Below are positions 29,936-45,891 of a stretch of 64,000 nt of DNA, one piece after another. Position 1 is the stretch's first letter. Each line of letters starts with the position of its first letter. This DNA is from an uncultured Pseudomonadota bacterium (GTDB taxonomy: Bacteria; Bdellovibrionota_B; Oligoflexia; Oligoflexales; CAIYRB01): positions 12,172 through 76,171 of the forward strand of contig CAIWTN010000077.1 of assembly GCA_903915625.1 (NCBI GenBank), read 5' to 3'. Below the pieces are notes generated by a model. That model searched no databases and was not told where the DNA came from. It saw only the letters and a program-made list of their open reading frames with translations. The translations under genes were made by a program, and so were the position numbers.

Positions 29936-30385
29936 TTAACTTAGCTGCTCTGTCGGCGATGATGTCGATTTACATGCAGCCAATTGGGCTTCAAAAACGC
30001 GCAGGGAAATCGCAAAATCTTTGATAAAGAAGCCAAGCGCCGCAATCATCAGTGCTACGCTAAGAGAAAACAGCGTCGGTACGACTACGGGAAGATCCAA
30101 GCTAAATAGCAGGCTCCCAAAGATCACGAAGATGGTTAGAGCGACGCAGAAGATACTCGCCGAGTTGAGGATAATGGTTAAACGGAGTAGTCGTGCCCTG
30201 CGGTGCAGCACGCGCAATTCAGACCAATCTAGTTGTCCACGGTCCATAAGGACGCGGGCCCGGTCAATGACTCGTCCGAACCGTACTGACATTGAGGCGA
30301 GGAGAGTGCCTGCTCCCATGATCAAAAAAACCGGAGCGACGGCAGTCTGCATGGCATGGGTAACATCTGTGACGGAATGAAACAC
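29936..30385 (-). CDS. DUF2721-like membrane protein
   Basis: QTAVAPVFLI, RFGRVIDRAR, L.RRARL, three hydrophobic helices. Confidence 0.8.
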   Translation of the reverse strand: MFHSVTDVTHAMQTAVAPVFLIMGAGTLLASMSVRFGRVIDRARVLMDRGQLDWSELRVLHRRARLLRLTIILNSASIFCVALTIFVIFGSLLFSLDLPVVVPTLFSLSVALMIAALGFFIKDFAISLRVFEAQLAACKSTSSPTEQLS

Positions 30386-30407
30386 GGGTATAACTCGCTG
30401 ATAAAAA

Positions 30408-30770
30408 CTATTTAGTTAAAAGGTTGCCCGCTGCTAGGCGGTTCTCGGTGTCTTGGTAGCCACCAATAAGTACGCCGTTCACAAAGACTTGCGGGAAGGT
30501 TGGCCAACCGCTCCACAATTTAATGGCCAAGCGTTTCTTCCACTGTGAGGTATACCCTCCGTATTCAATGTAGTGAAAGGAAACGTTTGCCTTCGTCAGC
30601 GCGGCGCGAACCTTGCGTACAAAAGGATTGGATGCCATGCCTACGACGACGACCATATGTTCCTGGACGGCCTTGCTTACCTCGGCAACGGCATCTGGAT
30701 AAAACGCCGCTATCGCTGCACCTGCCTCAGGGCTGATTTTGTCTTTGGGTAGCGTCTCGCGTGTAGCCAT
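30408..30770 (-). CDS. Glutaredoxin-fold protein lacking cysteine
   Basis: WSGWPTFPQVFVNG.LIGG signature; the active-site position reads SNPF. Confidence 0.8.
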   Translation of the reverse strand: MATRETLPKDKISPEAGAAIAAFYPDAVAEVSKAVQEHMVVVVGMASNPFVRKVRAALTKANVSFHYIEYGGYTSQWKKRLAIKLWSGWPTFPQVFVNGVLIGGYQDTENRLAAGNLLTK

Positions 30771-30832
30771 TTGGGAATCGCCTTTCGTTTTAATGCTGAT
30801 ACCGCGCGTCTATCGTGCTGTGGCTCCGAGGT

Positions 30833-32590
30833 TCAGCGGGCCATTTGCTTCTCGACTAGGTGAAAGTAAACCCCTTGCTTATTCTGGATGAGGTCATCGT
30901 GAGTCCCTTTTTGCACGATGCGTCCATGGGCGAGCACGACTACTTGATCTGCGTACCTTACCGTCGATAGGCGGTGCGCGATCACGAGCACAGTACGCCC
31001 GCGCATCAAGCGTTGCAAGGCCTCCTGTACTAAAGACTCACTCTCAGCATCAAGTGCACTAGTAGCCTCGTCTAGGATCAGAATCTTTGGATCTTTTAAC
31101 ATCGCTCGTGCAATCGCAATGCGCTGGCGCTGCCCTCCAGAAAGTTGCACGCCCCTTTCTCCAACGAGGGTGTCATAGCCGTTAGGAAACCGCTGAATGA
31201 ACTCCTCTGCGTGTGCCGATAAAGCTGCCGACTTGATATCTTCGAACGATGCATCTGGACGCCCATAAGCGATGTTGTCGCGGATGCTGGTCGACATTAA
31301 TATTGGCTCCTGAGCCACGGTGCCGATAGAGCGCCGCAGGCTTGAGCCAGACAGTGTTGTTAGATTTTGGCTGTCTAGGGTGACGGTGCCACTCAATGGG
31401 TCATAAAAGCGCTGGAGTAAGCCTGCAATCGTCGATTTTCCGCTACCGGAAGCCCCAACTAGGGCGACTACTTTTCCCGGACGGATATCCAGATCGATAT
31501 CTTGCAGGACTGGTACGTCAGAGCGAGTAGGGTAGGCGAAGCTAACATGTTTGAATTGAATATCGCCATCGACCTGAGTCAGCGTCTGCCCGTCTTCGTT
31601 TGGCAAACTAGGCACGCGGTCGAGAATTTGAAAAATGCGCCCCGCCGCGCCTGCCGCACTCATAAAATCAGTCCATAGACTGCCTAAGGTGCCGGCGCTT
31701 ACAGCGACGGTCACCGTGTATAGAATGTACGCCGACATCGTTCCAATAGTTAGCTCTCCAACTACAACCTGCCTAGCTCCGTACCATAGGACAGCGGCTA
31801 TGGCAGTCAGGCCCCAAAGAGAGATGAGTCCCATGAACTTACCGATTTTTCTGATCCGTCCGCGTGCCAATTCCAAAGCATGATCTAATGCTAGGGAAAA
31901 TCTTTGGTTTTCTGTTTGTTCCGCGGCAAAGGAGCGGACGGTGCGAATGTTGGTCAGGGTTTCGTCAGCGACGGCACTGGCAACGCCAAGTGCCTCCTGG
32001 ACTTGCCGCGAGGTGCCGCGAATTTGTCCACCGAATCTGGCGACAACCACTGCTGCTGGTGGTAGTGCTGCCAAAAGCACCAGCGTCAGCTTGGGTGCTG
32101 TAATCACCATCAATACTAGACCACCAATGGTGGAGGCGAGATTTCGCAGTAGCATCGAAATGTTGACGCTCAGTGCATTTTGCAAAACACTAGCATCTGT
32201 CGTTAGGCGACTAAGAAGGTCGCCAGTCATCTGACTGTCAAAAAAACCGACCTCCTGGCGTAGTAGCGACTGAAATAACTGGGCCTTGATAGCGCGCACT
32301 GTGCGTTCGCCAGAATAGGTGAACAGGTAATAGCGTGCCGCCGAGGTAATCGCAGTGGTGATAAGGATAGCCATCATCGCGAGACCGATGCGATCTATAC
32401 TTGCAACATCACCGTGATTTAGAGCTTGGTCTAAGGCCTCTCGTACTGCTTGCGGAAAAATTAAGGTGAGTGATGATGAGATAGCCAAACAAACGGTGCC
32501 CCAAATTAGGCGCCGCCGTTCCGGTTTAGCGAACTTAAGTAGTTTACTGAGGGCAGTGAAACGGCCTAGGTTCGCAAGATCGTCAGTCAC
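30833..32590 (-). CDS. ABC exporter, fused TMD-NBD (MsbA/ABCB10-like)
   Basis: TM domain, GASGSGKST, LSGGQRQRIAIAR, LDEATSALD, IAHRLST. Confidence 0.93.
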   Translation of the reverse strand: MTDDLANLGRFTALSKLLKFAKPERRRLIWGTVCLAISSSLTLIFPQAVREALDQALNHGDVASIDRIGLAMMAILITTAITSAARYYLFTYSGERTVRAIKAQLFQSLLRQEVGFFDSQMTGDLLSRLTTDASVLQNALSVNISMLLRNLASTIGGLVLMVITAPKLTLVLLAALPPAAVVVARFGGQIRGTSRQVQEALGVASAVADETLTNIRTVRSFAAEQTENQRFSLALDHALELARGRIRKIGKFMGLISLWGLTAIAAVLWYGARQVVVGELTIGTMSAYILYTVTVAVSAGTLGSLWTDFMSAAGAAGRIFQILDRVPSLPNEDGQTLTQVDGDIQFKHVSFAYPTRSDVPVLQDIDLDIRPGKVVALVGASGSGKSTIAGLLQRFYDPLSGTVTLDSQNLTTLSGSSLRRSIGTVAQEPILMSTSIRDNIAYGRPDASFEDIKSAALSAHAEEFIQRFPNGYDTLVGERGVQLSGGQRQRIAIARAMLKDPKILILDEATSALDAESESLVQEALQRLMRGRTVLVIAHRLSTVRYADQVVVLAHGRIVQKGTHDDLIQNKQGVYFHLVEKQMAR

Positions 32591-32614
32591 AGTTTATCCT
32601 ATCGTCAAAAGACG

Positions 32615-35317
32615 TTAGCTAAGTGAGGATGTCGGCTCTATAGCCTCCGATACTATACGCACTTCACCGGCACCCGCATCAACGATCAGGTGTTGTCCGG
32701 AGCGGATGCTTGATGTGAGGCCCGAGACGCCAATAATCGTCGGTAATCCAAGCTCCCGCGCCACGACAGCGGAGTGGGATAGCAGGCTGCCCCTTTCCAC
32801 AACCAAGGCGGAACAAACGGGATAGAGGGTAACCCAGCCTGGATCAGTGCGCTCTGCCACAAGTATCTCGCGGTTGACTACTTTTGCTTCGGTAAAAGTA
32901 CGCGCTACGAGGGCTTTTCCCTCGACCCGGCCGGGGTAACAGGAGGTGCCCACAAGGATGTTGCTGCCTATGACGCCATGGGTTTGAGGTTGTTGGTGGA
33001 GCGCGGAGTAAATACTCGTTAGACCTGGGACGCCCCTGCTGACTATGCGTTCTGCCGGTGCCGGAGTCTGATCGTAGGTCGTATATTCGGTGCTTCTTAG
33101 ATGAATCGTGCCCTTCAGATCGAGGCTTACAGCTTTGCCGTGAACTAAATTTTCAAGTTCGTCCACAGTCAGCCAGAAGATATCTTTCGGACTGGAGATT
33201 AGATTGAGTTTGGTCAGATGCTGCCCCATGGCTCTAAATATTCGCCGTGGTACTCCGTAGGTGCGAGAGCGGAGCAAGCGGAGGCTTTCCCTGTCCGCTA
33301 TTGCGGCACTGCACTGTTTGACGAGCCAACGCATAATCCAGCGTCGCATGCCGCTCATGGTGCTGATCAATTGTTCCGCCTCCTTGCGGCGGTCGGTTTT
33401 GTCGTCGCGGCGAGTTGCCGTGGTTTGAAGGGGTGCACTTAGATAAGTTTTTAGCAAAACAAAAATAGGACTGGCGTCGTAGGTCAAATCATCGGTCTCA
33501 AGTTTTGCCTCGTCGGCGCATCTGCAGCCATACTCGCGCAGATATTCGTCAACCTCTTTGCTCAGTGCGCGCAGTTCGTAGGATTCGCGTAATTTGCTGA
33601 TGGCCTCTTCTGGTTGGACCTGCAGTAACCAGTCGCGGCCGGGCAAAGATCCTTCCCGTATTCGCTGGGCTAGTTGCATTAGAATACGGGCTGGTGCAGC
33701 TGATACGAGCTCAGCTTCTTGACCAAGTAGATCGTTAAAAATTTGCTTGTCGTTCGGTAACCAAGCCTCTGTTGTCTTTTTCAGAATGCCAAAAAACAGC
33801 ATGCATCGCGTGTCATTTAGTATCGGAGCCTGCCAATGCAGGACAAGCTCGTTGTAGGCGAGCTGATACGCCTGTAGTTGATCCCTTAAACTCATTTTCG
33901 AATAGTCGGATTCCATGGCAGCGTCGCAAACTTTCACGACCCGTTGACGGAAGTCCTCAATGCATTTTTGCAGAGTTGCCAAGCGGTAGATTGCGGTACC
34001 GATCAGGAGGATTTTACGCGTCAAACTTGGTTTATAGCCGGGACCCGTGGAGTCAAAAAACTTGTCTGCTTGATCGCCGAGGCTCTCCTTTACCCCCATC
34101 ATTGTTTCCATAAAGCTGGAACTAGATTTGGCATTGGGTAGTAGATAGAGTAGCTTGTACCAGTTTAGTAAATTGTAATAGACGCGGCCGCGGACTAGGC
34201 CCAGCATGTTGCCGAATAATCTATCATTCGCTTGGATTGTGGTCTCGGGTACTCCCATAATCCGGCAAAAATCAATATAAACTTGTTTATATGACCGTGT
34301 CGCATGGCTAAATGTTAGCGGCATCACTGTACCAGAAAAACTCTCTACAATATTGGCATTGTCCCAGATAATTCGTTCGTCGCCGGCAATTTTCGCGGAG
34401 AATGCCGAATTACTTGGTAGATTTGCAATGGGTCTGGCTTGAAGTAGTAACAATGATCCGTCCGCGACGCACCACTCAAGGTCTAGCGGGTGGCCCAAGG
34501 ACTGCTCGATCGTCAAAGATGCACGGGCAATCTCCTGCACTTGCGTATGGCTAAGTGTTGCGGCAGTTGCCTTTGTCTTCGGGACTTCAACCTTTTGGGT
34601 GCCGCCCCCGATGCCTCTGCGGTAGCTGGACGTTTTTTTTGATACTTTACTCATCACAGTAAAATCGTGGCGATGTACTTCGAAGTGATCCGGTTCTAAG
34701 TCACCGTTCACCAGACCTTCACCAACACCTAGCACTGCATCAATAAGTAACCAATCATGAGTTTTTCCAGGTAGAGGGCTGCGGCTAAAAGCCACTCCGG
34801 ATACATCGGGATCAATCATCTCTTGAATAATGATTGCCATGCGACAGTCAATATTTACGAGCTTTTTGAGCTGCAGGTAAGTATTTACCCTGGCGCTGTA
34901 TGCAGAGATCCAGACAGCTTGAATTGCTGAGGTAATAGCATCCATGCCACTGACATAAAGTTGTGACTCGAAGAGTCCGGCAAAGCTATGATCTCTATGA
35001 TCTTCGCCAATAGCGCTTGAGCGGATGGCGAGATCTTTGTTGATCAGACCAGTAACTGTTAACGCTGAAGCTATCTGAGATTTTAGTGACTCAGGCCATT
35101 GACCACTACGAAGTGTGTCAAGAATGACATTCGTATCCGAGCTAGGACTCACGCCATTAGCAACGAGAAAGTTGTCACGCCATTCAGCGGCAAGGCAGAT
35201 AAAGCGAGGGATCTTGAAGCCTAAATCAGTGAGTCTGGCTAGGCCTAAAGCTTTTCCGCCTGCATTTTGGCCTGCTAGCAAAATATCGCGACTACTCTTT
35301 AATACGGTCGATTTCAT
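32615..35317 (-). CDS. PEP-utilising dikinase, RPH/PigC-type architecture
   Basis: N-terminal ATP-grasp (GGKA, IRSSAIGED..SFAG, LQARPI), large central domain, C-terminal phospho-His swivel domain (TDPGW, SLLSHSAVVARELG). Confidence 0.85.
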   Translation of the reverse strand: MKSTVLKSSRDILLAGQNAGGKALGLARLTDLGFKIPRFICLAAEWRDNFLVANGVSPSSDTNVILDTLRSGQWPESLKSQIASALTVTGLINKDLAIRSSAIGEDHRDHSFAGLFESQLYVSGMDAITSAIQAVWISAYSARVNTYLQLKKLVNIDCRMAIIIQEMIDPDVSGVAFSRSPLPGKTHDWLLIDAVLGVGEGLVNGDLEPDHFEVHRHDFTVMSKVSKKTSSYRRGIGGGTQKVEVPKTKATAATLSHTQVQEIARASLTIEQSLGHPLDLEWCVADGSLLLLQARPIANLPSNSAFSAKIAGDERIIWDNANIVESFSGTVMPLTFSHATRSYKQVYIDFCRIMGVPETTIQANDRLFGNMLGLVRGRVYYNLLNWYKLLYLLPNAKSSSSFMETMMGVKESLGDQADKFFDSTGPGYKPSLTRKILLIGTAIYRLATLQKCIEDFRQRVVKVCDAAMESDYSKMSLRDQLQAYQLAYNELVLHWQAPILNDTRCMLFFGILKKTTEAWLPNDKQIFNDLLGQEAELVSAAPARILMQLAQRIREGSLPGRDWLLQVQPEEAISKLRESYELRALSKEVDEYLREYGCRCADEAKLETDDLTYDASPIFVLLKTYLSAPLQTTATRRDDKTDRRKEAEQLISTMSGMRRWIMRWLVKQCSAAIADRESLRLLRSRTYGVPRRIFRAMGQHLTKLNLISSPKDIFWLTVDELENLVHGKAVSLDLKGTIHLRSTEYTTYDQTPAPAERIVSRGVPGLTSIYSALHQQPQTHGVIGSNILVGTSCYPGRVEGKALVARTFTEAKVVNREILVAERTDPGWVTLYPVCSALVVERGSLLSHSAVVARELGLPTIIGVSGLTSSIRSGQHLIVDAGAGEVRIVSEAIEPTSSLS

Positions 35318-35357
35318 TAAGTTGTCCTAGTCTCAAGAGATAGAAATAGCGCCAGCG

Positions 35358-36503
35358 TCAATATGGGTAGTGACTATTAGTCCGTCCTTCAATCTTCTGA
35401 AAGACGCCGATTTTGTAAATGCAGGTGATCTCGCTGCTGATAATCTTTTCGTATTTTATTGTGACATCTTCTAACTTTTCTAACTTAGTAGTGGGGGGAC
35501 AGAAACGAAAGTAGCGTGCTACTGCAAGGCCGCCTGTGGCCATGCCCACCGCAAGCTTTTGCATGATGTTCGGCGTGGTCGTAGTTGACCCAGAGTAAGA
35601 GGGGGTGTCGGAAAGTGACACAAAGTTGGCAATACTGGGGTTTTTTTCGAGGAACTCGTAAAGATCGGACTGTACATAGCTAATGGCGCAGGATTTGATG
35701 CCCTGTTGAATCTCGGAATAATGCAAATTAGAGCACTCGAGTGGGAGAGCCTCATCGTTTTCAAGCTGGCCACGCAGCAAGATTTTCAAAAAAAAGTTCT
35801 CTCGGGCTAAGCTCACTCTCAGCGTTGAGGCAAGCCTGTCGTTAAAGTAGCGATAATCACTTTTCGCGAGATTTAATTGTGGCAATTGATTGCCGTAAAT
35901 GAGGCGATTAAATACATATGATTGACCGATCATGGCTACTGCCAGTCGCCAGCGCCAGCGTGGAAATTTGTCTGCGAGATATTGTCTCTGCTCATCCATG
36001 GTGCGGCAGTGGAAAATAGCCAGTCCACGTGGCCCGATGACTCGCGTCGCAAATCGTGCTAATTTGCCGAATGCCTTCTCCCAGCGCCCTAAGTAAATAA
36101 TGGGGCCCCAATTGGAACGACTGAATAACTCCGTTAAGTTAATTTTGGTTTCGGTTGATAGATTGAGGCGACCAAATACCTCTTGGCGTTCCTCAGAGCT
36201 AAAAGACCGAGAACCGTAGCCAAAAAACCTGCGGTAATCCTCTAGGCTTAAGGTTTTCGCGGCCTCGATCCTAAGTTCTGTCAGATGGAGTTGCTGTGGT
36301 GAAACGTCCACGCACACTAGAGACTTTGGTGCTTTTGCAAATAAAGGTAGTACTCTCGCCCCACTGCCGGCTACGCAGACGACGCAGTTAGCATCCCGTG
36401 GCAGGATACTTAGTTCCACCGCTGTGTCTTCATTGGCAAGGCTGTAATTCAGGACTGAGAAGTATTCCAATGATTTTGGCCCCAAAGCAACAGAGCGCGA
36501 CAA
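35358..36503 (-). CDS. BtaA/DUF3419-like SAM-dependent transferase
   Basis: LNYSLANED..VE, VAGSG, VDVSPQQ.HL.ELR, G.WE, ENFF, SLSD. Confidence 0.75.
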   Translation of the reverse strand: MSRSVALGPKSLEYFSVLNYSLANEDTAVELSILPRDANCVVCVAGSGARVLPLFAKAPKSLVCVDVSPQQLHLTELRIEAAKTLSLEDYRRFFGYGSRSFSSEERQEVFGRLNLSTETKINLTELFSRSNWGPIIYLGRWEKAFGKLARFATRVIGPRGLAIFHCRTMDEQRQYLADKFPRWRWRLAVAMIGQSYVFNRLIYGNQLPQLNLAKSDYRYFNDRLASTLRVSLARENFFLKILLRGQLENDEALPLECSNLHYSEIQQGIKSCAISYVQSDLYEFLEKNPSIANFVSLSDTPSYSGSTTTTPNIMQKLAVGMATGGLAVARYFRFCPPTTKLEKLEDVTIKYEKIISSEITCIYKIGVFQKIEGRTNSHYPY

Positions 36504-36626
36504 GGCGCGACTGCGTGCCGTTTGGAAATATTATATAAACATGTCTAAATTAGTCTAAGTTAGGCTTACTCTAGCACAGAGATTTATTGAATCCAAACGA
36601 GATGAGAGCAGGCTTTTATTGGGGCT

Positions 36627-36648
36627 AGCGGCACACCTTGGTGCCGCT
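36627..36648. other. 8-bp GC-rich stem-loop between operon genes
   Basis: AGCGGCAC-accttg-GTGCCGCT just downstream of the 36666 stop; no U-tract. Confidence 0.45.
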
Positions 36649-36665
36649 GAGCTATTGGCGGCGCG

Positions 36666-38912
36666 TCATTTCAGCATTGCTAAAGCCCATAGCTGGCTGA
36701 AGCCCACTAATAGGCTACTTACCTCGACAAGTTGATAGCGATCGGGCCGGCGACGCCAGTATTGGATTGCGACAAAAAACAATAAAAAGGTCGGCCATGT
36801 CCATATGATAGTGCGCATGGATGCCCCGCCCACTGCAGACATTAAGCCGCAGATCATTAGGAGGTATCCGGTCAGTTTCGGCCCGTATGCCTGTAAATAG
36901 GTCTCCCGTCCCGGTGGAGCTTTGGGGTCTAACTTACGCGACACCTCGTATGCCATCGAGCCAGCAAGATTCGCAAGAATGAAACCAAATAAGATTCGCA
37001 GGTCGAGATCAGGGCGGCGTGGCACTGCCAATACCGGTAGCAAGTAAAGAGGTATGACAAGTAGTTGGTGAGTTATGGCGTAGAGTAACGGAGACTTTGC
37101 TAAGCGCTCGCCAACAAAGAACTCTCGTTCCATCAAAAGGAGATAAAGAGTGGTCGTAAGGCCCATGATGGCTGCCCATGTGGCTTGCAAGTAAGCTAGG
37201 CCGAAGGCCATCGCTGCCATGCAAGCAGTCATTGCGTGTATTGCAGAGCGCGCTTCACTGATTTTTAGCAAGCCGCGAGGGAGTGGTCGTCCCGGATTGA
37301 CGACACAGTCTTTTTGATAGTCCTTACATTCATCCATTAGCCGAGCTAGTACGAGAGCTGCTATGACAAAGATAAAGCTAAGTGCTGCAAGCAGCCAATT
37401 TGAACTCGGGCCGTTTGTGTCCATGCCGCCAAAAGTTGGTCCAGAAGCCACAAGTGCGAGCCCGGGCAAGGCGGCACGCTCGTGGAAGAACATCAGCCAG
37501 CGTTTGACCTTTGATTTCGGTCGCAAAGTTGTAGCGCGGTCGATGCGGGTCCGATGCCGGGGATCACGTGCTATCGGGAGCTTGGCAATTGATGTGATCT
37601 CGGGAAAGCGCCGGAGAATATCGACTGTTTTTTGGGGAAGGCGGTTAGTGACCAGAAAGCGCGAGCCTGCCGGTGAGCGTGCGATGAATGCATTCGTGTG
37701 TTTCAGCAGTGGGAACAGTTTTTGCTCCAGCTGGAAGTCGTCAGAAGGTAGGTGTGATCGGCCCGCATAGTACCAGCCATCAGACCTGATTTCCATGCGG
37801 TCACCAGTTAAGTGCCAAGGATACCCAGTGTTAATAGCGGGGGTTGGAACAATAGCCCGACTCGAATCGAGAAATGCTTCAGAGCATACATTAGGTCCCG
37901 ATACCCAAAGCCCTTCGGGGCGTACCTCTGTCGTTAGGAAGGGAAGTGGCTCCCCGATATAGCGAATCTGACTCTCACCATTGGCCCTTGCCTTGCTCAG
38001 TGCCACTCGGGCGTCAACAAGCGCTATGGGTTCTGCTTCGCTGCAGCCGTATACATGAGTTATCTCCGATTTCGGCCACCGTTTAGTTGCTGATTCGATA
38101 AGTCGGCAGTCAGTCGAGGCGCCGCCAATATAGATGTGTCTTAGACTTTCGAAACCGTGAACTTGGAGTAGTCGCTCGAGAAAGGCTGGGCTGGTCGTTA
38201 GAGTCTTGGGCTTTAGTGTCTTGGCGGCTCGTGCGAGCTTGTTAAGTGCACTATTGTTCCAGCGGTGGTCGACAATCATCGTGCCTCTGCCGCTGAATAA
38301 GTGCAGGGCTCCGATGGCGGGGAATAGCGTAAGGTCGGGCTCTTCGTAGGGATCGCGACAGCCACCCTCGGTCAAGATGTCGACTAAATCTACTGTGTAT
38401 TTATGAGTGCGGATAATGCCCTTCGGGCGTCCCTGTGTCCCCGAACTGAAGGTAATGGTCGCCCCGGAGTCGCCTGGAGTATCCTCTAAAATAAAATCAC
38501 CAGACCGTCGGGACAGAAGTTGGCTCAAGGTTGGTTGTATTTCAATCTTGCTCAAGGCGGGTATGCGGCTCATCAGGCGCCGAAGGAGGGGGGACGTGAC
38601 AAGGAACTTTGGCCGCGCCATTTGCACTGCGTATTCAATAGAATGAACATCAAGCCATGGCTCTAAAAACATCAGGCGCCCCCCTAGCCCGAGTACCGCG
38701 CAATATAGGGCGTAGGTTTCCGGGCTGGGTCTTAAAGCGAGCAACAGCGTGTCGCCAGGCTCAAAACTTAGGCTCCTCAAGCAGGTTTGCATAGTTGCCG
38801 CCAATGTCAGCAGCTGCTCGTACGTGACCTCTCCGCTCGTCTGATCCCACGTAGCTAGTTTGGTCGGAGCGCGGTCACGGCATAAAACGATACGTCCAAG
38901 GGAGTTCGTCAC
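36666..38912 (-). CDS. Fusion: OleC-like AMP-binding (adenylation) domain + UbiA-family prenyltransferase
   Basis: TFSSGTQGRPKG, YGCSEAEP, HLTGD, RDPRH..RIDR; then a multi-TM region with RLMDECKDYQKD..NPGRPLPRG and YEVSRK. Confidence 0.8.
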   Translation of the reverse strand: MTNSLGRIVLCRDRAPTKLATWDQTSGEVTYEQLLTLAATMQTCLRSLSFEPGDTLLLALRPSPETYALYCAVLGLGGRLMFLEPWLDVHSIEYAVQMARPKFLVTSPLLRRLMSRIPALSKIEIQPTLSQLLSRRSGDFILEDTPGDSGATITFSSGTQGRPKGIIRTHKYTVDLVDILTEGGCRDPYEEPDLTLFPAIGALHLFSGRGTMIVDHRWNNSALNKLARAAKTLKPKTLTTSPAFLERLLQVHGFESLRHIYIGGASTDCRLIESATKRWPKSEITHVYGCSEAEPIALVDARVALSKARANGESQIRYIGEPLPFLTTEVRPEGLWVSGPNVCSEAFLDSSRAIVPTPAINTGYPWHLTGDRMEIRSDGWYYAGRSHLPSDDFQLEQKLFPLLKHTNAFIARSPAGSRFLVTNRLPQKTVDILRRFPEITSIAKLPIARDPRHRTRIDRATTLRPKSKVKRWLMFFHERAALPGLALVASGPTFGGMDTNGPSSNWLLAALSFIFVIAALVLARLMDECKDYQKDCVVNPGRPLPRGLLKISEARSAIHAMTACMAAMAFGLAYLQATWAAIMGLTTTLYLLLMEREFFVGERLAKSPLLYAITHQLLVIPLYLLPVLAVPRRPDLDLRILFGFILANLAGSMAYEVSRKLDPKAPPGRETYLQAYGPKLTGYLLMICGLMSAVGGASMRTIIWTWPTFLLFFVAIQYWRRRPDRYQLVEVSSLLVGFSQLWALAMLK

Positions 38913-39086
38913 GCTCAGATCCTTCTATTAGTATTCAGGTGCTTATGTTCGCATTCTAACCCAAGCACTGTGTTCAAAACAAATATCTGTGATTTGTTTC
39001 AGTATTGGTCGCATGATACGATAGGGGAAATTCTCAGCTCCGATGTTTTTGTATACAGGTTAAGTTAGGAAATCCGGTAGTACGCC

Positions 39087-40139
39087 TTGCCGCGGGGTCA
39101 AATGTCACTAAGTCTAGAATCATATGCTGACGCCGCAGATAAGGCTGAATTTATCCAGGCGTTCAGAAACTTTGGACCCGAAGTAGTGGGTGCGTCGCAG
39201 CACTACTTCGAAACTCTCTTGCCGCTTTATATTGCATCAGGAAACATGTGGGTTGCGCGCTTCGAGGGGTCAGTGGTGGGGAGGCTAGCCGGTAGTAGAT
39301 CGGCAGTGGATCCGAGCCGGGGCGGCCTTGGACTTTTAGCGCTTGATGAACATCATTCAAGGCGGCGCGAGATCGGGCAGTTATTAATTCAAGCGTCACT
39401 AGACTGGCTGGCCAAACTCGGCGTGGATCAAACATTCGCACCCATTGATATCAATACTTGGTTCAGATTTCGCCTAGCAGAGGTTGACTTTCGTCATCCG
39501 CCTCGCTTCTCTTGGGAGCCAGGGGTACAGCAACTTTGGCAAGAGATTCTCCAGGAATCTGGATTCTCCAAGGCAATTCATTTCAAAACTGCTGTATTTG
39601 ACACGCCAGATCTTTCCCCTGCGCTAAGTGTATTAGGTCCGCATGTACGGCGCGCCGAGGCAGAGGGCTACACCTTTCGTAATTTTGCTAGCGATGGTGA
39701 TTTGGACCGCGATCTTCGACTAACCCATCAATTTTCCCATGCCTGTTTTCAAGGCACTGCATTATTTGAACCGCTCAATTTCCCACTCTATGAACGTTCG
39801 TTTGGACATATTATTAGGGCTGGTGCCAAAGACACGTCATTTTTTATCTGTGGACCAGACAAGAAGGAACTCGGGTTCATTTTTGCGTTCATAGAAAATG
39901 ATTACTTGGTGGTTAAGACCATTTACGTTCTGCCAGATTTCGCTCGCGAAAAAGCTCGTAAATGGGCTGCTTCAGCCACTTTATTGCACAGGGCTATTCA
40001 GCGTGGCATGGAACTTAAAGTTAGGGGAGGAGTGGCAGCTATGATGCGTGATGATGCCACTAGCAATCTGCTAGTGCGCTGGCAGAAGTGGATGGAACCT
40101 ATCATGCGTCACTACTTCCTGCTAGCACGTGATGTTTGA
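39087..40139 (+). CDS. GNAT-fold putative N-acyltransferase (YghO-like)
   Basis: VVGRLA, APIDINTWFRFRL, FSWEP, ESGF, FEPL..YE, GFIFAF, VVKTIYVLP. Start may be ATG 39102. Confidence 0.6.
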   Translation: MPRGQMSLSLESYADAADKAEFIQAFRNFGPEVVGASQHYFETLLPLYIASGNMWVARFEGSVVGRLAGSRSAVDPSRGGLGLLALDEHHSRRREIGQLLIQASLDWLAKLGVDQTFAPIDINTWFRFRLAEVDFRHPPRFSWEPGVQQLWQEILQESGFSKAIHFKTAVFDTPDLSPALSVLGPHVRRAEAEGYTFRNFASDGDLDRDLRLTHQFSHACFQGTALFEPLNFPLYERSFGHIIRAGAKDTSFFICGPDKKELGFIFAFIENDYLVVKTIYVLPDFAREKARKWAASATLLHRAIQRGMELKVRGGVAAMMRDDATSNLLVRWQKWMEPIMRHYFLLARDV

Positions 40140-40225
40140 TTCGAACCCATTGAGATGACGAGAGATTTGATATTTTATTTTTCTACACGATTTATATTTA
40201 AACTTATCCCGCATTTGGAGGCGTT

Positions 40226-41644
40226 ATGAAACGTAAATTGGTAGCCCTATCCCTAGGCAGTTTAGCTCTGATTTCTCACATCGGTTGCAAAAACTCGGCT
40301 AATTCAGAGAGCAAAGCTAAGGAATCGACGGTTAAAAGCCGGGTAGGTAATGCGAGTGAAGAACAGGAATCACCAGCGTACAAAGCGTTTGTTAGCGAAT
40401 TTGTGGCCATCAAAAATGCCGATGATTTTGCCGCTATTCTTGGTAAACTTCAAAGAGATTACAATACTTATCCCGTCGACCTGAAGTTTGTTGCAGCGCA
40501 ACTCATACCTCTATCTGGTCTGCGGGGCCTTGGATATTTAGTACATAACCTCGCTGTTCAGAGCAAGGTAACGGACAGTCTAGCAGTGACTGGTCTGATG
40601 GTGACTGCGAGTGGAATAAATCTATTTTCGCCACCGCCAACCAACGGGGGCTCTGGGACAGCAGCATGGTCGGCGATTTTCGACTATCTGACTTTGCCTT
40701 TTGCAGGTGTTTCTGAGAAGTTTAGAAGTGTACGAGATCTGCAGGCTTTTATTCATACGAATCTGGTTGCTAATAAAGCCCTTGATATCGCGATTTCCAG
40801 GATTTCTGAGTTGAATATCACGGTAAATACCCCAGTGGTCTGGGACAACCGTTTGGTATACGGTGCAAGTGGCTTCGCGGATAGTCAAGACCGCTTTGTA
40901 ACCCTAACAGACTCTGAGAAGAATGTGGCCATTGCTGGTCTACACTCTATATACCACAACACATTAGTCTTTTTGTCTTATAACTATGACGATTCCATCA
41001 AGGCTATGGATAAAGTTGGTAGGCTGGTTGGGTTAGATGTTGTTTTGCCTGGTCAACCAGATGGAGTTTCGGCTCGAGATAGAGCAAAAATTATTCGGAG
41101 CTTTCCAGCTCTGTTCACAGCACTTCCAACTGCTGCTGAATACATGCCTGCTGCATATGCGCATCTGAAGGCTTCAGTCGAAGCAGTAGGCGAGGCATGG
41201 CGCGCAACTAAAGCTCAGGGCAACAACAGCTCAAACGATTTCCAACTGCTCAGTCCCGCAAAGATCTTGCCGTGGCAGCGGATCAACGATGTGTCTTTGA
41301 GTAATATCAAAGCTCTGTTGAATGGTCAGCCTGTGCGTAGCGCAGTCACTGGAGAAACAGTAACGATGAATATACCCGCTTTTTACACCAATCCGCCGCA
41401 GAATATGCAGGCTTTTTTGCCCGTTGCCTTCAAGTCGGGAGACCAAAATATCGTAGTAGCAGGGCAAACAACGCGTAATTATCACTACGGTGAGGCGGAG
41501 CAGTGGGACATCAATGCCTTTAAGCCTTATATGCCTGGTGTTAATAGTTCAACAGACGTGGCGCGTGACATTCGGATCTTAGGACAAGTATGGGGCGGGT
41601 GGTTTGCCAGTGTTCCGACTGTGGCTATGACCATTGCAATGTGA
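40226..41644 (+). CDS. Hypothetical lipoprotein
   Basis: Signal MKRKLVALSLGSLALISHIGC; GGAGG RBS; 472 aa; no family recognised. Confidence 0.8.
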   Translation: MKRKLVALSLGSLALISHIGCKNSANSESKAKESTVKSRVGNASEEQESPAYKAFVSEFVAIKNADDFAAILGKLQRDYNTYPVDLKFVAAQLIPLSGLRGLGYLVHNLAVQSKVTDSLAVTGLMVTASGINLFSPPPTNGGSGTAAWSAIFDYLTLPFAGVSEKFRSVRDLQAFIHTNLVANKALDIAISRISELNITVNTPVVWDNRLVYGASGFADSQDRFVTLTDSEKNVAIAGLHSIYHNTLVFLSYNYDDSIKAMDKVGRLVGLDVVLPGQPDGVSARDRAKIIRSFPALFTALPTAAEYMPAAYAHLKASVEAVGEAWRATKAQGNNSSNDFQLLSPAKILPWQRINDVSLSNIKALLNGQPVRSAVTGETVTMNIPAFYTNPPQNMQAFLPVAFKSGDQNIVVAGQTTRNYHYGEAEQWDINAFKPYMPGVNSSTDVARDIRILGQVWGGWFASVPTVAMTIAM

Positions 41645-41667
41645 CTTTGCGATAATTGCGAGCATGA

Positions 41668-43929
41668 ATGAACGCATTTAATTGGCGGCGTATATTTTTG
41701 GTGATTCCGGGGGTGCCGCTGCAGCGCATGTTGCGTGCGGCCTTCCGGCGCCCCAAGAGTGTGTTAGCAGTGTTTGCACTTGCCATAGCTTTGCTACTGC
41801 CAGGTTTAGGTAGTCTGAAAATATTATTATCTGTAGTCGATATGTTGGACTCAGATGCTCCGTCTCGACAGGCCAATGTGCTGGCAAAAAGCGCATTTCC
41901 CGGTGATCAAGAACTAAGCGTGCTTTTTCAGCGGCGTGATGGTCACAGCCTAGATCAGGGGGAATTATGCCGCATCCGTACTTGGACCCGGCAGCTTGAT
42001 TTTACTAATCAAGAACTGCAATTTATCAATTCGCCCTTCCACGTGCGTATAGGCCAGGAGGCGACGCGCGCATTGCAATATCCGCTGCTTATGCCGTTGG
42101 ATTGCGATGCGGTCTCAAGTCCAAATAATACAAGGCTCGGGCCAGTGCTTGACTCGCCACTAGAGCGGATCTTCGTGGGAGTGCGTCAAGATACTGTTCT
42201 TGTGGACTTATTCTTGCGAAATACTTTAGGTGGTAGCCGCTATGGTGCGTTTGACCCAGCACCTGTCAGCGAGATTCAGGCGAGTTTGGCCTCTGCGTTT
42301 CCTCAGACGGATAAGATCCAGACAAGTATTAGCAGTAGTGCCGCTTTTAAGTGGTATTTTGTCAAAAGCTTGATGCAAGACCAGAGTGTAAATTTGCTGG
42401 TGCTAGTTGTCTTTTGTTTTGGTTTTCGCGCACTTTTTGGATCTTGGCGCGGTGCTCTGATACTGGCTGGATCGTTAATTACCTGCACAATCATGCTTTT
42501 TGCCGGTATGGGTTTCTATGGTACTCCCATCGATATCCTCACAAATAGTCTATTCACTATCGTTGCGTTGGCTTCTGCGGAAGACTTTTTGTACCTTTCG
42601 CAGGCGCAGCAGAGTCAGCCGCCCGGATCGAGTTGGCGCGAGCCATTTCGAAAATTGATTCTACCGTCTTTTTATACATCCCTCAGTACTGTGATTGGCT
42701 TCGCCTCACTCTGTTTGTCTGATATCACGCCGATCCGCCGCCTCGGGCTTTGGGCGGCGGTGGGTGCTGCGCTAGAATTTTTTATTGTTTTTTTGATGCT
42801 TCCGGCCTTTCTGCAAATATCTCCGAAGATGCAGCGGTGGACGAAGCAGCACCCCACTAGCTTGACCCGCCGTCTGTCAGTATTAAGTGATATGCGTCTT
42901 CCGATGCCTTTTTTTCGCGCACTTATCGTTATATTTGGTGTGGCCTCTTTCGGTTTTACGCGCCTTGAGGTTCAGGATTCCCTTGAACGGATGTGGGATT
43001 CGCAGCACTCATTTAATCTGAGCATGCGGCAACTGCAGGAGAGTTTTGGCTGGAACGGTGCTCTCGACTTGGTCCTGCGTGACCCTAGTCGTATTGCGGA
43101 TCACCGCTCTATTTTAAACAAGATATCGCAGGTCCCAGGGGTAGTTAAGGTCGAAGATCCTTATGAACTGCTCGATTTCACTGGCAAGGATTTATCAACA
43201 AGTCGGCGGGAGCTACAGCGTCGAGAATTTGCACTGTCCCCGCAATACGCACGATGGTTTTCGACTAAAAATCCTTTGGTCAGGGCGACCATTTTTACCT
43301 CCGGTTCCGACCTGGCTACTTTGCGGCCGATCAGAGCGCGAGTTGAAGAACTCTGTGGTAGGGACTTGTGTTTCTTGACGGGCGATCTTGCCGCCTATGC
43401 TGATTTTTCCGATCATGTGATCACCACTCTGATAGGCAGCTTTTTGCTAAGTCTTGTTCTGGTTGCAGCGCTCCTCTTTGGACTATCCAGAGCTCTCAAG
43501 GTGCGTGCCGCGTTGCCTCTGATCGCCTCTTCGATGTGGGGGCCGTTCGTTCTTCTCGGCCTGACGCCACTTGTGTTTGGGGGAGTCAATTTTGTCACCT
43601 GCGTATTTGCAGCCGTATTAGTCGGTCTCGCGGGTGACAGTGGTATTCAATTTTTGTTCGCTAGCCGTCATGGTAGTATAGCCGAGGGTATGCGTAGCAA
43701 AGGTGTTGGTTCGGTGCAGATGGCCTTTCTTGCAGCCACGGCATCACTTGCCTATTTAAAGTCAGATTTCGCTCAGCCAAGGATTTTGGGTCTGCTGTTT
43801 GCTGCCGGGTTTATTTGCATGCTCGTGGGAGACCTCTGGCTACTGCGTGGGTTTTTGGGTTTAAGTTGGCGTCGAAAGCATAAGTACGGTTTGGACTCTG
43901 AATCCACAAGGCAGCCTCGGCGAATTTAA
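41668..43929 (+). CDS. MMPL/RND-family membrane transporter
   Basis: Two repeats of TM + periplasmic loop + TM bundle; TSLSTVIGFASL, GLAGDSGI. Confidence 0.75.
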   Translation: MNAFNWRRIFLVIPGVPLQRMLRAAFRRPKSVLAVFALAIALLLPGLGSLKILLSVVDMLDSDAPSRQANVLAKSAFPGDQELSVLFQRRDGHSLDQGELCRIRTWTRQLDFTNQELQFINSPFHVRIGQEATRALQYPLLMPLDCDAVSSPNNTRLGPVLDSPLERIFVGVRQDTVLVDLFLRNTLGGSRYGAFDPAPVSEIQASLASAFPQTDKIQTSISSSAAFKWYFVKSLMQDQSVNLLVLVVFCFGFRALFGSWRGALILAGSLITCTIMLFAGMGFYGTPIDILTNSLFTIVALASAEDFLYLSQAQQSQPPGSSWREPFRKLILPSFYTSLSTVIGFASLCLSDITPIRRLGLWAAVGAALEFFIVFLMLPAFLQISPKMQRWTKQHPTSLTRRLSVLSDMRLPMPFFRALIVIFGVASFGFTRLEVQDSLERMWDSQHSFNLSMRQLQESFGWNGALDLVLRDPSRIADHRSILNKISQVPGVVKVEDPYELLDFTGKDLSTSRRELQRREFALSPQYARWFSTKNPLVRATIFTSGSDLATLRPIRARVEELCGRDLCFLTGDLAAYADFSDHVITTLIGSFLLSLVLVAALLFGLSRALKVRAALPLIASSMWGPFVLLGLTPLVFGGVNFVTCVFAAVLVGLAGDSGIQFLFASRHGSIAEGMRSKGVGSVQMAFLAATASLAYLKSDFAQPRILGLLFAAGFICMLVGDLWLLRGFLGLSWRRKHKYGLDSESTRQPRRI

Positions 43930-43957: not shown

Positions 43958-45745
43958 TTACGATGTTGTGGCCTTTGATTTTAGAAGGCGGAGATCGCGT
44001 GTATTTAGAATGTTTGGTGCTGCCAAACCGCCTCGACGTGCTTGATACACAGCGAATTTCATAAAGTTCAATTCGTTCATGGAGTGAGCGTCCGAACTTA
44101 CGACGAAATGTACCGGATAATTCATAGCTCTACTTAATGCCTGCTCATTTAGATCTAGGCGCGACGGTTGGCCGTTTATTTCCAGTGCACAACCGTAATC
44201 GACGGCGGCTTTGCAAACCTCGGTCCATTCGAAGTCATAGGCAGGCCTTTTACCTATGAGTCGTCCCGTAGGGTGAGCAATGGCATGGACAAGGCCACTC
44301 TGGATTGCTTTGATGAGGCGCTTGGTAATGACCTGAGGTGATTGCTTGAGCCCATAATGGATGGCTGCTATCACCCAGTCCGCCTCCTTCAGTGTCTCCT
44401 TAGGCATATCCAAGGCTCCGTCCTCGAGAATATCGAGTTCAACGCCTTTTAGGATTCGGATGTCAGGAAATGAGCCCTGAATTTTATTGATATTTGACCA
44501 CTGTTCTTGCAGTTGAAATTCATCTAATCCCTTAGCCACAGTCACTCGCTGGGAGTGATCGGTTATAGCTAAATACTCATAATGATGCCGTTGTGCCGCC
44601 TCGATCATCTCTAGCATGGAATGGCGTCCATCAGTCGCATCGGTATGAACATGCAGATCGCCGCGGATATCTTGGGTCTCGACGAGTTGAGGGAGTCGAC
44701 CGGTAGCTGCTAGTTCAATTTCGCCGTGGCCCTCGCGCAGTTCGGGGGGGATCCAAGTTAGTCCTAGTGTTCTATAGACGTCCTCCTCAGTTCTGCCGGC
44801 ACGCGCAATGTCGCCTTCAAATAAGCCGTACTCATTGAGCTTGAGGCCGAGATTCTGCGCCATCTTCCGCAACTCAATGTTGTGAGATTTTGAGCCAGTA
44901 AAGTAGAGGAGTGCTGCGCCAAAAGATTCCCTCGGAACTACACGCAGATCCACTTGCCGGCCGCTGGCGAGTCGTAGGGACATTTTTGTCGCCCCACGGC
45001 CGAGTACCGTTGCCGCCGTGTCGAAGTTTTGAAGCCGGTCCATGAGCGCTGCGGCATCGTCACAGTCCGCAACCAGATCAAGGTCACCGACTGTCTCTCG
45101 CGAGCGACGGTAACTGCCAGCAACCTCAAACTTATTGTTGCCCGTAGTAGGTGCTAGGTAACTAGTCAAGCGATTCGCAAGGTCGCTAGCCTCATCGAGA
45201 AGCATGCGCCCCGAGGCCGCTTCCGCCTGCGTCAAGGAGGTTAGAATATTGGCCTCGGTCTTGGCACCGAATCCTTTCACGCCTGCCAATTGATGGGCTT
45301 CGGTCGCTGCGCGGAGCCCTTCTAGTGAATGGATACCAAGCACTCTCTCGAGCTGACGTGCCTTTTTGGGCCCGATTCCAGGGACTAGTAGCAGGTCGCG
45401 GGTGCCAGTTGGTATTTGTCGGCGGAGCTTATAAAGTAATTTGAATTCACCAGTACTCAGGATTTCTGTGATCTTACCGGCGAGGTCTTTGCCAATTCCT
45501 GGTATGTCGGTCAGTTTGTAAGTGGGGTCCGAGGTAAGCGAGCTTAGCGGTTGATCTAGATCACGCAGGCTGCGCGCAGCGTTTCGATAGGCTCTGATTC
45601 GAAACGGGTTCTCATTATGTAATGCAAGTAAATCGGCGGCTTCGTCGAAAAGCTCAGCGATTTCTTTGTTGTCACGATCATGGGGCGGTAAGTTTGTATG
45701 ATCTGGTGCTGGCTTGTCACCGGCCCCGGTACGAGATTGGCGCAT
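43958..45745 (-). CDS. polX: DNA polymerase X with PHP domain
   Basis: NPFRIRAYR.AA, GIG HhH motifs, GSYRR..TVGDLD, YFTGSKSHN, DLHVHT, ITDHS, SSDAH. Confidence 0.95.
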   Translation of the reverse strand: MRQSRTGAGDKPAPDHTNLPPHDRDNKEIAELFDEAADLLALHNENPFRIRAYRNAARSLRDLDQPLSSLTSDPTYKLTDIPGIGKDLAGKITEILSTGEFKLLYKLRRQIPTGTRDLLLVPGIGPKKARQLERVLGIHSLEGLRAATEAHQLAGVKGFGAKTEANILTSLTQAEAASGRMLLDEASDLANRLTSYLAPTTGNNKFEVAGSYRRSRETVGDLDLVADCDDAAALMDRLQNFDTAATVLGRGATKMSLRLASGRQVDLRVVPRESFGAALLYFTGSKSHNIELRKMAQNLGLKLNEYGLFEGDIARAGRTEEDVYRTLGLTWIPPELREGHGEIELAATGRLPQLVETQDIRGDLHVHTDATDGRHSMLEMIEAAQRHHYEYLAITDHSQRVTVAKGLDEFQLQEQWSNINKIQGSFPDIRILKGVELDILEDGALDMPKETLKEADWVIAAIHYGLKQSPQVITKRLIKAIQSGLVHAIAHPTGRLIGKRPAYDFEWTEVCKAAVDYGCALEINGQPSRLDLNEQALSRAMNYPVHFVVSSDAHSMNELNFMKFAVYQARRGGLAAPNILNTRDLRLLKSKATTS

Positions 45746-45891
45746 GAGCTACTCAACCTAAGATCTGCGCGTGTGAAATCGCGCTAATTTCCTTAGCCTG
45801 CTTACCCACTACTCAACCAGCAACTTTCGGGCCATTCATATTAGCTAAGCTGGGACGGGGCTCTGAGCGCGCATCCCAGCATTCAATCTGA

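Follow-up and report, generated by a model that had tools for sequence, protein, structure and literature searches.

In the synthesis of the betaine lipid diacylglyceryltrimethylhomoserine (DGTS), BtaA transfers the 3-amino-3-carboxypropyl group of S-adenosylmethionine (SAM) to diacylglycerol. Enzymes of the UbiA superfamily hold Mg-diphosphate between two Asp-rich motifs, and in the phytol salvage of phototrophs they come last in a series formed by the phytol kinase VTE5, the phytyl-phosphate kinase VTE6/DUF92 and then VTE2/ChlG. An AMP-ligase and a UbiA enzyme (XimA/XimB) act on one molecule in the xiamenmycin pathway, while the side chain of fungal siderophores, made from mevalonate by the mevalonyl-CoA ligase SidI and the GNAT transacylase SidF, is a precedent for the joint use of an HMG-CoA reductase (HMGR) product, an ANL ligase and a GNAT. 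Here we describe a gene cassette at positions 29936–43929 of a 64,000-nt stretch of DNA, which was analysed as a whole and is called the window below (all coordinates refer to it). The window is part of contig C77 of a 4.4-Mb metagenome-assembled genome (96% complete; assembly GCA_903915625.1). In this cassette, an ANL adenylating enzyme fused to a UbiA-type transferase is accompanied by a dikinase of the rifampin phosphotransferase (RPH)/PigC architecture, a tandem GNAT acyltransferase, a DUF3419 (BtaA-family) protein and putative exporters. The enzyme families are all known; it is their combination, and with it the pathway and the product, that appears to be undescribed. Full-text literature searches, whose scope did not extend to subscription journals and supplements, returned no paper describing this enzyme set, in line with a preliminary description of the locus, which knew of no characterised pathway that uses it. 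Papers on DUF3419 found in these searches did not deal with such a cluster either; one article (PMC7923214) merely lists a DUF3419 gene as a neighbour of the cly cluster.

The core genes form a conserved unit in many phyla

To follow the cassette in other genomes, the proteins of the window were compared by tblastn with 13 loci of relatives. The DUF3419, AMP-binding, UbiA (fused or split), dikinase and GNAT genes were found together in several families of the order, while the glutaredoxin-fold (Grx), ABC and DUF2721 genes accompanied them only in a genome 94% identical to the source genome. A wide scan, for which the alignment of the adenylation domain served as the pattern and one genome per species was considered, resulted in at least 581 confirmed stretches from 600 candidates, and the best 80 were kept. 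Among these best 80 of at least 581 loci, tblastn (E ≤ 1e-6) gave matches to the dikinase in 71, to UbiA in 70, to the GNAT in 41, to DUF3419 in 27 and to the ABC-type protein in 18, and in none of the 80 to the predicted lipoprotein p472, the RND-type membrane protein, Grx, DUF2721 or any outer flank gene. Family counts were obtained from 93 loci, in which open reading frames (ORFs) were called by a simple procedure, compared all-against-all by BLASTP and clustered transitively. L018 and L069 are the same contig. One duplicate locus was dropped, and in the remaining 92 loci AMP/UbiA families were present in 89, the dikinase in 79, the GNAT in 68 and DUF3419 in 59. By tblastn, the adenylation domain, UbiA and dikinase occurred together in 64 of 79 non-duplicate loci, the remainder being mostly cut contigs or loci with a very divergent UbiA.

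According to the submitters' labels, the best 80 loci span about nine phyla. Those from Bdellovibrionota are assigned to Bacteriovoracales, Bdellovibrionales, Oligoflexia and Silvanigrellaceae, and further labels include Gemmatimonadota, Planctomycetota, Parachlamydiales, Pontiellaceae, Victivallales, Balneolaceae, Flavobacteriales, ‘Eubacteriales’, Myxococcales and many Alphaproteobacteria. Cultured, non-pathogenic bacteria also carry the cassette, namely Ruegeria atlantica, Roseovarius aestuarii, Szabonella alba and Taklimakanibacter lacteus. The distribution is patchy: in the sample of the phylum, an orthologue of the adenylation domain was detected in 35 of 131 genomes and 12 of 55 genera (E ≤ 1e-40), and an exhaustive HMMER scan of 1.84 billion representatives gave 81 such proteins at E ≤ 1e-30. 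The recurrence of these gene families as a group in dozens of genomes unrelated to each other puts the arrangement far outside what chance would produce. Considering their gene content, we concluded that an ANL enzyme and a UbiA transferase, the dikinase, the tandem GNAT and usually the DUF3419 protein make up the core of the cassette, conserved as a unit across many phyla. The preliminary description had named a synteny search as the check on its proposal that the whole gene group belongs together; this core withstood the check, while DUF2721, Grx and p472 did not.

Features of the core proteins

The genes of the window were called from an ORF listing and then searched with Pfam and NCBIfam models. 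The 748-aa fusion protein (36666–38912, minus strand) consists of an ANL adenylating domain (residues ~1–465) and a UbiA-type intramembrane transferase domain (~466–748). Membership of the former in ANL follows from its match to PF00501 (AMP-binding, 107.2 bits), and the alignment of the adenylation domains (A1) contains an almost invariant A3-type motif, FSSGTxGRPKG, together with conserved A5- and A7-like motifs (YGxSEAEP and WHxTGDR). The NCBIfam model ranked first is named ‘fatty acid CoA ligase family’, while the profile of the domain is nearest to the A domains of nonribosomal peptide synthetases (NRPSs; LgrA, 140 bits over two stretches; 8xjz, 97 bits), followed by DltA (74 bits), 4-coumarate ligase (72 bits) and FadD10 (64 bits). 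In the UbiA part, the first Asp-rich motif is kept as DExKDxxKD, followed by RPLPRG, and the orthologue in L094 passes the Pfam UbiA model PF01040 at 55.8 bits. The closest solved relative is the digeranylgeranylglyceryl phosphate (DGGGP) synthase 6m31, a UbiA enzyme of archaeal ether-lipid synthesis (E 0.003). Both the RPLP(S/R)G segment and the Asp-rich motif that precedes it are included in the alignment; however, the match has an E value of just 0.003 and covers only ~90 residues, and the cassette family differs from DGGGP synthase in the poor conservation of the second Asp-rich motif and in the fusion of the UbiA domain to an adenylating enzyme. The two domains are encoded as one protein in 19 of the 92 loci (a checked number, as a tally by length alone, 25, over-counts) and as separate ORFs within one locus in 53.

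The 900-aa dikinase (32615–35317, minus strand) matches PPDK_N (197.8 bits) and PEP-utilizers (72.7 bits), without PEP-utilizers_C. These Pfam matches indicate an ATP-grasp domain at the N-terminus and a swivelling His domain at the C-terminus, with a large domain in the middle, and the TIM barrel that binds phosphoenolpyruvate (PEP)/pyruvate is missing. The ATP-grasp motifs and the His-domain motif ERGSlLSHSAvVARElG.P are conserved in 69 orthologues. The best NCBIfam model is an unnamed ‘PEP synthase’ subfamily (NF004881, 742.5 bits against a cut-off of 883), and the closest solved relatives are the Listeria rifampin phosphotransferases 5fbs/5hv1 (E ~5e-56). The protein thus shares with RPH, PigC/RedH and related ‘X, water dikinases’ the three-part architecture without the PEP-binding barrel and the His motif, but it scores far below the equivalog cut-offs of RPH (255.3 vs. 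999 bits), PigC (322.4 vs. 1300) and RedH (312.4 vs. 1350), and its genomic partners are wholly different from theirs. A true PpsA of 808 aa with PPDK_N, PEP-utilizers and PEP-utilizers_C is encoded 20 kb away, at 55164–57590 (plus strand); its barrel underlines the RPH/PigC type of the cassette enzyme, which has none.

The DUF3419 protein (35358–36503, minus strand) scores 113.6 bits against PF11899, well above the cut-off of 28.2, and it is the only copy in the source genome. Conserved positions in the cassette orthologues are an N-terminal Y....ED, a G-S-G stretch and VD.S..Q, and the protein is presumed to be a SAM-dependent transferase. A search of the PDB by sequence gave no match for it. 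The copies in alphaproteobacterial cassettes reach 182–209 bits with the same model, compared with 368.9 bits for a btaA-like gene. This btaA-like gene adjoins a class-I methyltransferase ORF in Taklimakanibacter lacteus (L105, 1384–3289), and the pair presumably represents a true betaine-lipid pair, apart from the cassette DUF3419 of the same genome; the window protein is 27% identical to its btaA-like member. The cassette thus has the Pfam family DUF3419 in common with the BtaA/BtaB pathway of DGTS synthesis, and a membrane-lipid context is plausible for it, but the partners of the cassette gene are a dikinase, UbiA, ANL and GNAT proteins instead of a BtaB-type methyltransferase.

The GNAT gene is listed at 39087–40139 on the plus strand (350 aa; Acetyltransf_1, 31.3 bits). 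This ORF opens at a TTG codon (39087), and an ATG lies five codons downstream at 39102, which is the likelier start, since the orthologues and the Atlas record (from residue 6) begin there. The AlphaFold2 model is of high confidence (pLDDT 90.3), and its top Foldseek matches were tandem GNATs (7q3a, 5kf1, 1ozp and 2wpw; E 2e-12 to 6e-11, TMq 0.5–0.6), while weaker matches were obtained with the aminoacyl transferases FemX and L-PGS/MprF (E ~5e-9 to 3e-8). Both halves of the profile match GNATs, i.e. two GNAT folds are present in one chain, as in MAB_4324, the Clostridium glucosamine N-acetyltransferase, MshD and the clavulanate-pathway enzyme. Identity to these proteins is as low as 10–16%, however, and the cassette family has a signature of its own, GP..x.TW..YR...F.WEP. 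The preliminary description had pointed to bacterial ceramide synthase, a GNAT-fold enzyme whose expected partners are Spt and CerR; among the ORFs clustered from the 92 loci, however, there is no recurrent family of the aminotransferase class (Spt-like). Judged from the alignments, the predicted catalytic motifs of the core proteins appear largely intact.

Putative export genes beside the core

The ABC and RND genes are lineage-specific add-ons to the core. The former (30833–32590, minus strand) encodes an MsbA-like half-transporter of the exporter type (ABC_membrane, 196.2 bits; ABC_tran, 118.3 bits). An MsbA-like ABC gene adjoins the cassette in the window and in L012, and comparable full-length ABC exporters occur near it in L057, L065 and L082.

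The RND-superfamily (MMPL/HpnN-like) membrane protein of 753 aa is encoded at 41668–43929 (plus strand). Its NCBIfam matches are weak (HpnN, E 1.7e-12, 46.2 bits against a cut-off of 751.85; HAE3, E 1.3e-9; MMPL-type, E 9e-7) and lie far under the cut-offs, and in Pfam it reaches E 0.15 with MMPL and E 0.0052 with Sterol-sensing. A simple hydropathy scan showed nine strong segments, arranged as a first transmembrane (TM) segment, a long loop, a TM cluster, a second long loop and a second TM cluster; this is compatible with the RND/MMPL layout, for which 12 TM segments and two large periplasmic loops are expected. RND homologues stand beside the cassette in four separate lineages (L014, L020, L042 and L090), and those of L090 and L042, 22–25% identical to the window protein, pass the Pfam MMPL model with 85.8 and 52.8 bits, respectively. 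The PDB sequence search with the window protein returned only noise at E ≤ 1. The MMPL call of the preliminary description is weak for the window protein itself, which remains below all family cut-offs, although its hydropathy and its distant homologues agree with the call. Compared with the known MmpL/HpnN exporters and MsbA, the RND protein has a compatible hydropathy pattern and weak HpnN/MMPL/HAE3 matches, and the ABC protein has a full-length match to MsbA-related models (TIGR02204 MsbA_rel, 618 vs. a cut-off of 780.4; TIGR02203, 456.6 vs. 602). Both differ from these exporters in staying below the family cut-offs, and their neighbour p472 has no known family or fold.

The 472-aa p472 (40226–41644, plus strand) matches no Pfam family. 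Its signal peptide ends in Cys (MKRKLVALSLGSLALISHIGC), which makes the earlier assignment as a lipoprotein plausible. The gene adjoins the RND gene in the window, L012 and L014 and is always paired with RND. Its family comprises eight clusters among 5.8 billion proteins, none of them named. The AlphaFold2 model is mostly helical and of middling confidence (pLDDT 65.3, pTM 0.74); Foldseek found no match at E ≤ 0.001, the PDB sequence search gave none, and the structural relatives proposed by VIA-align were discarded, as the best Z score (7.9, to generic helical proteins) lies within the background for helical models. The 451-aa ORF located upstream of the RND gene in L020 has no similarity to p472 and matches no Pfam family.

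Accessory modules in other lineages

Outside the window, the core is usually extended by further genes. In the alphaproteobacterial operon of Ruegeria, the order is HMGR-like gene, UbiA, dikinase, DUF3419, A445 (a 443-aa membrane protein), a 281-aa protein, which is the orthologue of the window GNAT, and the AMP-binding gene. None of the 16 members of A445 gives a consistent Pfam family, and the A445 profile found no match in the PDB. As leads only, consensus motifs and the ESM Atlas (TM 0.69 to a DUF92 cluster, feature scores 0.81–0.86) indicate a resemblance to the DUF92/phytol-kinase/dolichol-kinase group. In Bdellovibrionota the recurrent extras are a DAGK_cat/YegS lipid kinase, an NAD_binding_4 (‘male sterility’) reductase, a cytochrome P450, and MacB/FtsX and LolA_like export genes. 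Also recurrent in Bdellovibrionota is family c5 (~690 aa; L016, 5867–7981, and 25 other loci), whose C-terminal half matches the first 363 positions of the prodigiosin PigE model (E 4.6e-41) as well as the cyanobacterial acyl-acyl carrier protein reductase (AAR), while its N-terminal ~320 residues belong to no family. An AurF-like di-iron oxygenase, a formyltransferase and a metallo-beta-lactamase were found in other loci, and the formyltransferase may hint at an amine intermediate. Exporter-type genes of some kind (MacB/LolA-like, MMPL/RND or MsbA-like ABC) are present in 27 of the 92 loci. In the Silvanigrellaceae-type loci L029, L060 and L066, an AurF-like oxygenase gene lies directly upstream of the cassette, which is followed by genes for a MacB-type ABC/FtsX, a Bd3614-like deaminase, a YkuD L,D-transpeptidase-domain protein and a subtilase.

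An HMGR-like gene occurs in 30 loci and the reductase/lipid-kinase trio c5–c7 in another 30, while both are found together in none of the 92. In L014, L015 and L023 the HMGR-like protein is fused to a kinase of the APH/EcKL type (~945 aa; e.g. L014, 12715–15552), and L041, the fourth HMGR-bearing locus without A445, has a 956-aa member of the same ORF cluster, so this cluster occurs exactly in the HMGR-bearing loci that have no A445. A445, for its part, is fused to a small GNAT in L096 and L065. The mutual exclusion led us to read these genes as three interchangeable ‘four-electron reduction + kinase’ modules, whose putative forms are an HMGR-like enzyme with a DUF92/phytol-kinase-like protein, the HMGR–APH fusion, and an AAR-like reductase with a short-chain dehydrogenase/reductase and a DAGK-like kinase.

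The logic of phytol salvage (alcohol, phosphate, diphosphate, UbiA transfer) is a precedent for such extended versions, as the cassettes of Alphaproteobacteria and of the Planctomycetes–Verrucomicrobia–Chlamydiae group combine a DUF92/phytol-kinase-like protein, a dikinase and UbiA in one operon. In contrast to the salvage route, the kinase likeness is a lead without a Pfam match, the window has no A445 in cis, and the HMGR-like, ANL, GNAT and DUF3419 partners have no counterpart there. The siderophore and xiamenmycin routes differ from the cassette by their hydroxyornithine, NRPS, chorismate-lyase or cyclase genes, which the cassette lacks.

The window represents a minimal version, which consists of the core, the MsbA-like ABC, RND and p472. 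Relatives of the reductases or kinases are not wholly absent from the source genome, as two findings on other contigs show. A mevalonate operon on C102 (L111, 613–5410) encodes an FMN_dh/IDI-2-like protein, an HMGR (345 bits), a GHMP kinase and diphosphomevalonate decarboxylase; this housekeeping HMGR is encoded in trans to the cassette, while the alphaproteobacterial cassettes carry their own HMGR-like gene. On C208 (L112, 7153–9133), a 260-aa ORF without a Pfam family shows weak similarity (26.5% identity over 181 residues) to the N-terminal part of A445, and it is convergent with a gene for a 405-aa NAD_binding_4 fatty-acyl-reductase-like protein. The latter pair could be a ‘reductase + kinase’ module in trans.

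Proposed function and alternative explanations

We consider it somewhat better than an even chance (a probability of about 0.55) that the window carries one copy of a widespread membrane-associated biosynthetic cassette which builds and exports an amphiphile or lipid. From the enzyme families we infer that the product is best read as an exported amphiphile or lipid with a hydrophobic part attached by UbiA and a head group derived from SAM or an acyl donor. The dikinase would use ATP to place a phosphate on an oxygen atom of some hydrophobic compound (X-OH + ATP + H2O → X-O-P + AMP + Pi), in the way that rifampin is modified by its solved relative, and the UbiA domain would join a (di)phosphate-activated hydrophobic group to an acceptor inside the membrane. 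The DUF3419 protein may then transfer 3-amino-3-carboxypropyl (or methyl) from SAM to a hydroxyl, the resulting amine being acylated by the tandem GNAT, while the cytoplasmic adenylation domain tethered to UbiA may prepare an acid (amino, aryl or fatty) for one of these couplings by activating its carboxylate. In other lineages, the ‘reductase + kinase’ module probably supplies the alcohol phosphate from an acyl thioester. The MsbA-like ABC protein would flip the product, and the MMPL/RND protein and the lipoprotein would move it outward. The DAGK_cat/YegS kinase, the NAD_binding_4 and AAR/PigE-N-like reductases, the P450, LolA_like with MacB/FtsX and the MMPL homologues are hints that point to a lipid or amphiphile. 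The preliminary description had suggested the construction and export of an aminoacylated, phosphorylated or prenylated lipid; a conserved cassette with lipid-type tailoring and export genes is what stands of this proposal, whereas the chemistry of the product is still conjecture. One elaborate route, which taken as a whole seems improbable to us, would have the acid adenylated, reduced and phosphorylated by kinase and dikinase to an alkyl or allyl (di)phosphate for UbiA, that is, an isoprenoid-independent ‘pseudo-prenylation’; with an N-acylated aminocarboxypropyl head from SAM, this would define a new class of ether-linked aminolipids, present in about nine phyla and exported to the envelope.

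Several observations weigh against the lipid cassette or against single steps of it. The 80 loci were picked by similarity of their adenylation domain and include related genomes that are not independent of one another, and there are exceptions even to the core: L059 has full flanks but no dikinase, and in L041 no UbiA stands beside the adenylation domain. The residue that precedes I-D-R in the adenylation domain, at the position we take to be the A10 catalytic lysine site of canonical ANL enzymes (aligned to it by eye), is R in most of the 16 aligned sequences and Q in two. The acid substrate is not fixed by the profile matches either, since the NRPS A domains and DltA are the nearest and DltA is about level with 4-coumarate ligase and FadD10. 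The UbiA domain of the window, with 33.4 bits, falls 0.8 bits short of the PF01040 cut-off of 34.2, and at the position of the second Asp-rich motif nine UbiA-bearing rows of A1 read Y-E-x-x-R-K-L; given the altered motif and the score below the cut-off, canonical prenyl-diphosphate chemistry is not assured. The loop R/Q-G-x-G-L-S of most GNAT orthologues, presumably the usual CoA-binding loop, is replaced by REKARKWAAS in the clade of the window, which weakens the acyl-CoA-dependent reading. The DUF3419 protein is just 22–27% identical to other family members, and Pfam detected no methyltransferase domain (BtaB-type N-methyltransferase) among the 14 ORFs of the locus. Finally, no reductase/kinase module is present in cis at the window locus, in contrast to about two thirds of the loci, and thus the ‘alcohol phosphate’ step may not apply here.

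A clearly less probable alternative, which nevertheless deserves serious attention, is that the cassette makes a diffusible specialised metabolite (a pigment, signal or antibiotic) and not a membrane lipid, for example a prenylated compound derived from an aryl or amino acid. In that case an ATP-dependent condensation would fall to the PigC-like enzyme and amide formation to the A domain, and efflux or self-protection would be the task of the transporters. In favour of this, the dikinase matches both PigC and RedH along the whole model (322 and 312 bits), accessory c5 matches the PigE model, and the adenylation profile has its closest relatives among NRPS A domains. The cut-offs of PigC and RedH (1300 and 1350) are, however, far above the scores of the dikinase, and no pyrrole, polyketide synthase, NRPS-carrier or chorismate-derived genes were found in any of the 92 clustered loci. 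An AMP-ligase and UbiA pair serves prenylated benzoate amides such as xiamenmycin, the patchy distribution also speaks for this alternative, and the lineage-dependent variation of the P450, the AurF-like oxygenase, the metallo-beta-lactamase and the formyltransferase resembles natural-product clusters. The recurrent accessories, on the other hand, are of the lipid type (DAGK_cat kinase, fatty-acyl-reductase-like, LolA-like and MMPL).

It is rather unlikely that the cassette yields no free end product and instead charges a carrier of the polyprenyl-phosphate type with an activated acid or amino acid, or alters the carrier itself, which would then be flipped for the decoration of an envelope polymer in the periplasm by a Dlt/Arn-like logic, the UbiA domain being the carrier-binding part as in decaprenyl-phosphate phosphoribosyltransferase. 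UbiA-family enzymes can take a lipid phosphate as acceptor, and the degeneracy of the second Asp motif here may mean that donor or acceptor is non-canonical. Fusion of the cytoplasmic A domain to a membrane domain in 19 of the 92 loci would suit such a role, as would the 74-bit match to DltA, which is near the best single-domain matches of the profile, and the MsbA-like ABC could serve as the flippase. However, the recurrent genes of the 92 loci include neither a glycosyltransferase nor a periplasmic transferase of the MBOAT/DltB-like or ArnT-like kind, and this explanation leaves the reductase/kinase, P450 and BtaA-like genes unaccounted for; the tandem-GNAT fold does match the aminoacyl transferases FemX and L-PGS/MprF, but less well than the acetyl-CoA-dependent tandem GNATs. 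That the genes are chance neighbours without a common pathway is scarcely credible. Promoter and terminator scans at chance level and the lack of conservation of DUF2721, Grx and p472 with the rest would agree with it, but the core genes are neighbours in loci from about nine phyla, among which their order varies and fusions occur, and the gaps in the window are short (24, 40 and 162 bp), so for the core this explanation is excluded by synteny.

If the lipid or amphiphile cassette is the correct reading, an unnoticed family of membrane compounds exists in the predatory Bdellovibrionota, the marine Rhodobacterales, Hyphomonadaceae, Planctomycetota, Gemmatimonadota and others. The same reading would further provide the first functions for a large unnamed branch of PEP-synthase-like dikinases, for a DUF3419 branch outside betaine-lipid synthesis, for a UbiA branch with a degenerate second motif and for a new tandem-GNAT family. 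Because the cassette is present in cultured bacteria, the question is directly testable, and the three mutually exclusive reductase and kinase modules constitute a natural experiment that narrows the precursor.

Gene order, flanks and second copies

The ORF listing reproduced all nine ORFs of the preliminary description with their coordinates and strands, the leftward run that diverges from the GNAT, lipoprotein and membrane-protein genes, and the 24-bp spacing from dikinase to ABC gene; the domain calls were likewise upheld by Pfam and NCBIfam, apart from the weak MMPL call. Along the leftward run, from DUF2721 to the fusion gene, the intergenic gaps measure 22, 62, 24, 40 and 162 bp. The divergent region between the fusion gene and the GNAT gene (38913–39086, 174 bp) is presumed to hold bidirectional promoters; a consensus promoter scan of it remained at chance level (16 sites vs. 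17.1 expected), and the terminator consensus scan found nothing beyond chance level. The base composition of the region is unremarkable (GC 0.47–0.53, the same as elsewhere).

At the left end of the cassette, the Cys-less glutaredoxin-fold protein (30408–30770, minus strand) belongs to the Glutaredoxin family of Pfam with 34.7 bits. As noted before, there is no Cys anywhere in its translation, and it reads ASNPF at the position which we take to be the usual glutaredoxin active site. It adjoins the cassette only in the window and in L012, the 94%-identical locus, and together with p472 it is limited to the genus of the window; its membership in the cassette is doubtful. The DUF2721 membrane protein (29936–30385, minus strand; Pfam DUF2721, 86.9 bits) is probably encoded by a chromosomal flank outside the cassette, since on contig C90 of the congener G005 its gene adjoins the same cyclase gene in a locus without most of the cassette: there it lies between the cyclase gene and DUF3419, and the dikinase, GNAT, ABC, Grx and RND genes are missing.

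G005 has two copies of the cassette. The full one (L014) comprises p472, RND, dikinase, fusion, GNAT and HMGR–APH genes. The second (L013; C90, 819–7738), which is syntenic with the window and located between the cyclase/DUF2721 genes and PolX, retains only DUF3419 and the AMP–UbiA fusion, separated from each other by genes for a trypsin-like protease and a CarboxypepD_reg-domain protein. It looks like a decaying copy, and the position of this remnant marks DUF2721 and PolX as flanks.

The right flank in the window (43958–47088, minus strand) encodes a 595-aa DNA polymerase of the PolX family, which includes a PHP domain, and a 398-aa leucine-rich-repeat protein. The gene for the latter is retained in G007, while only a 25-residue tblastn match remains there of PolX.

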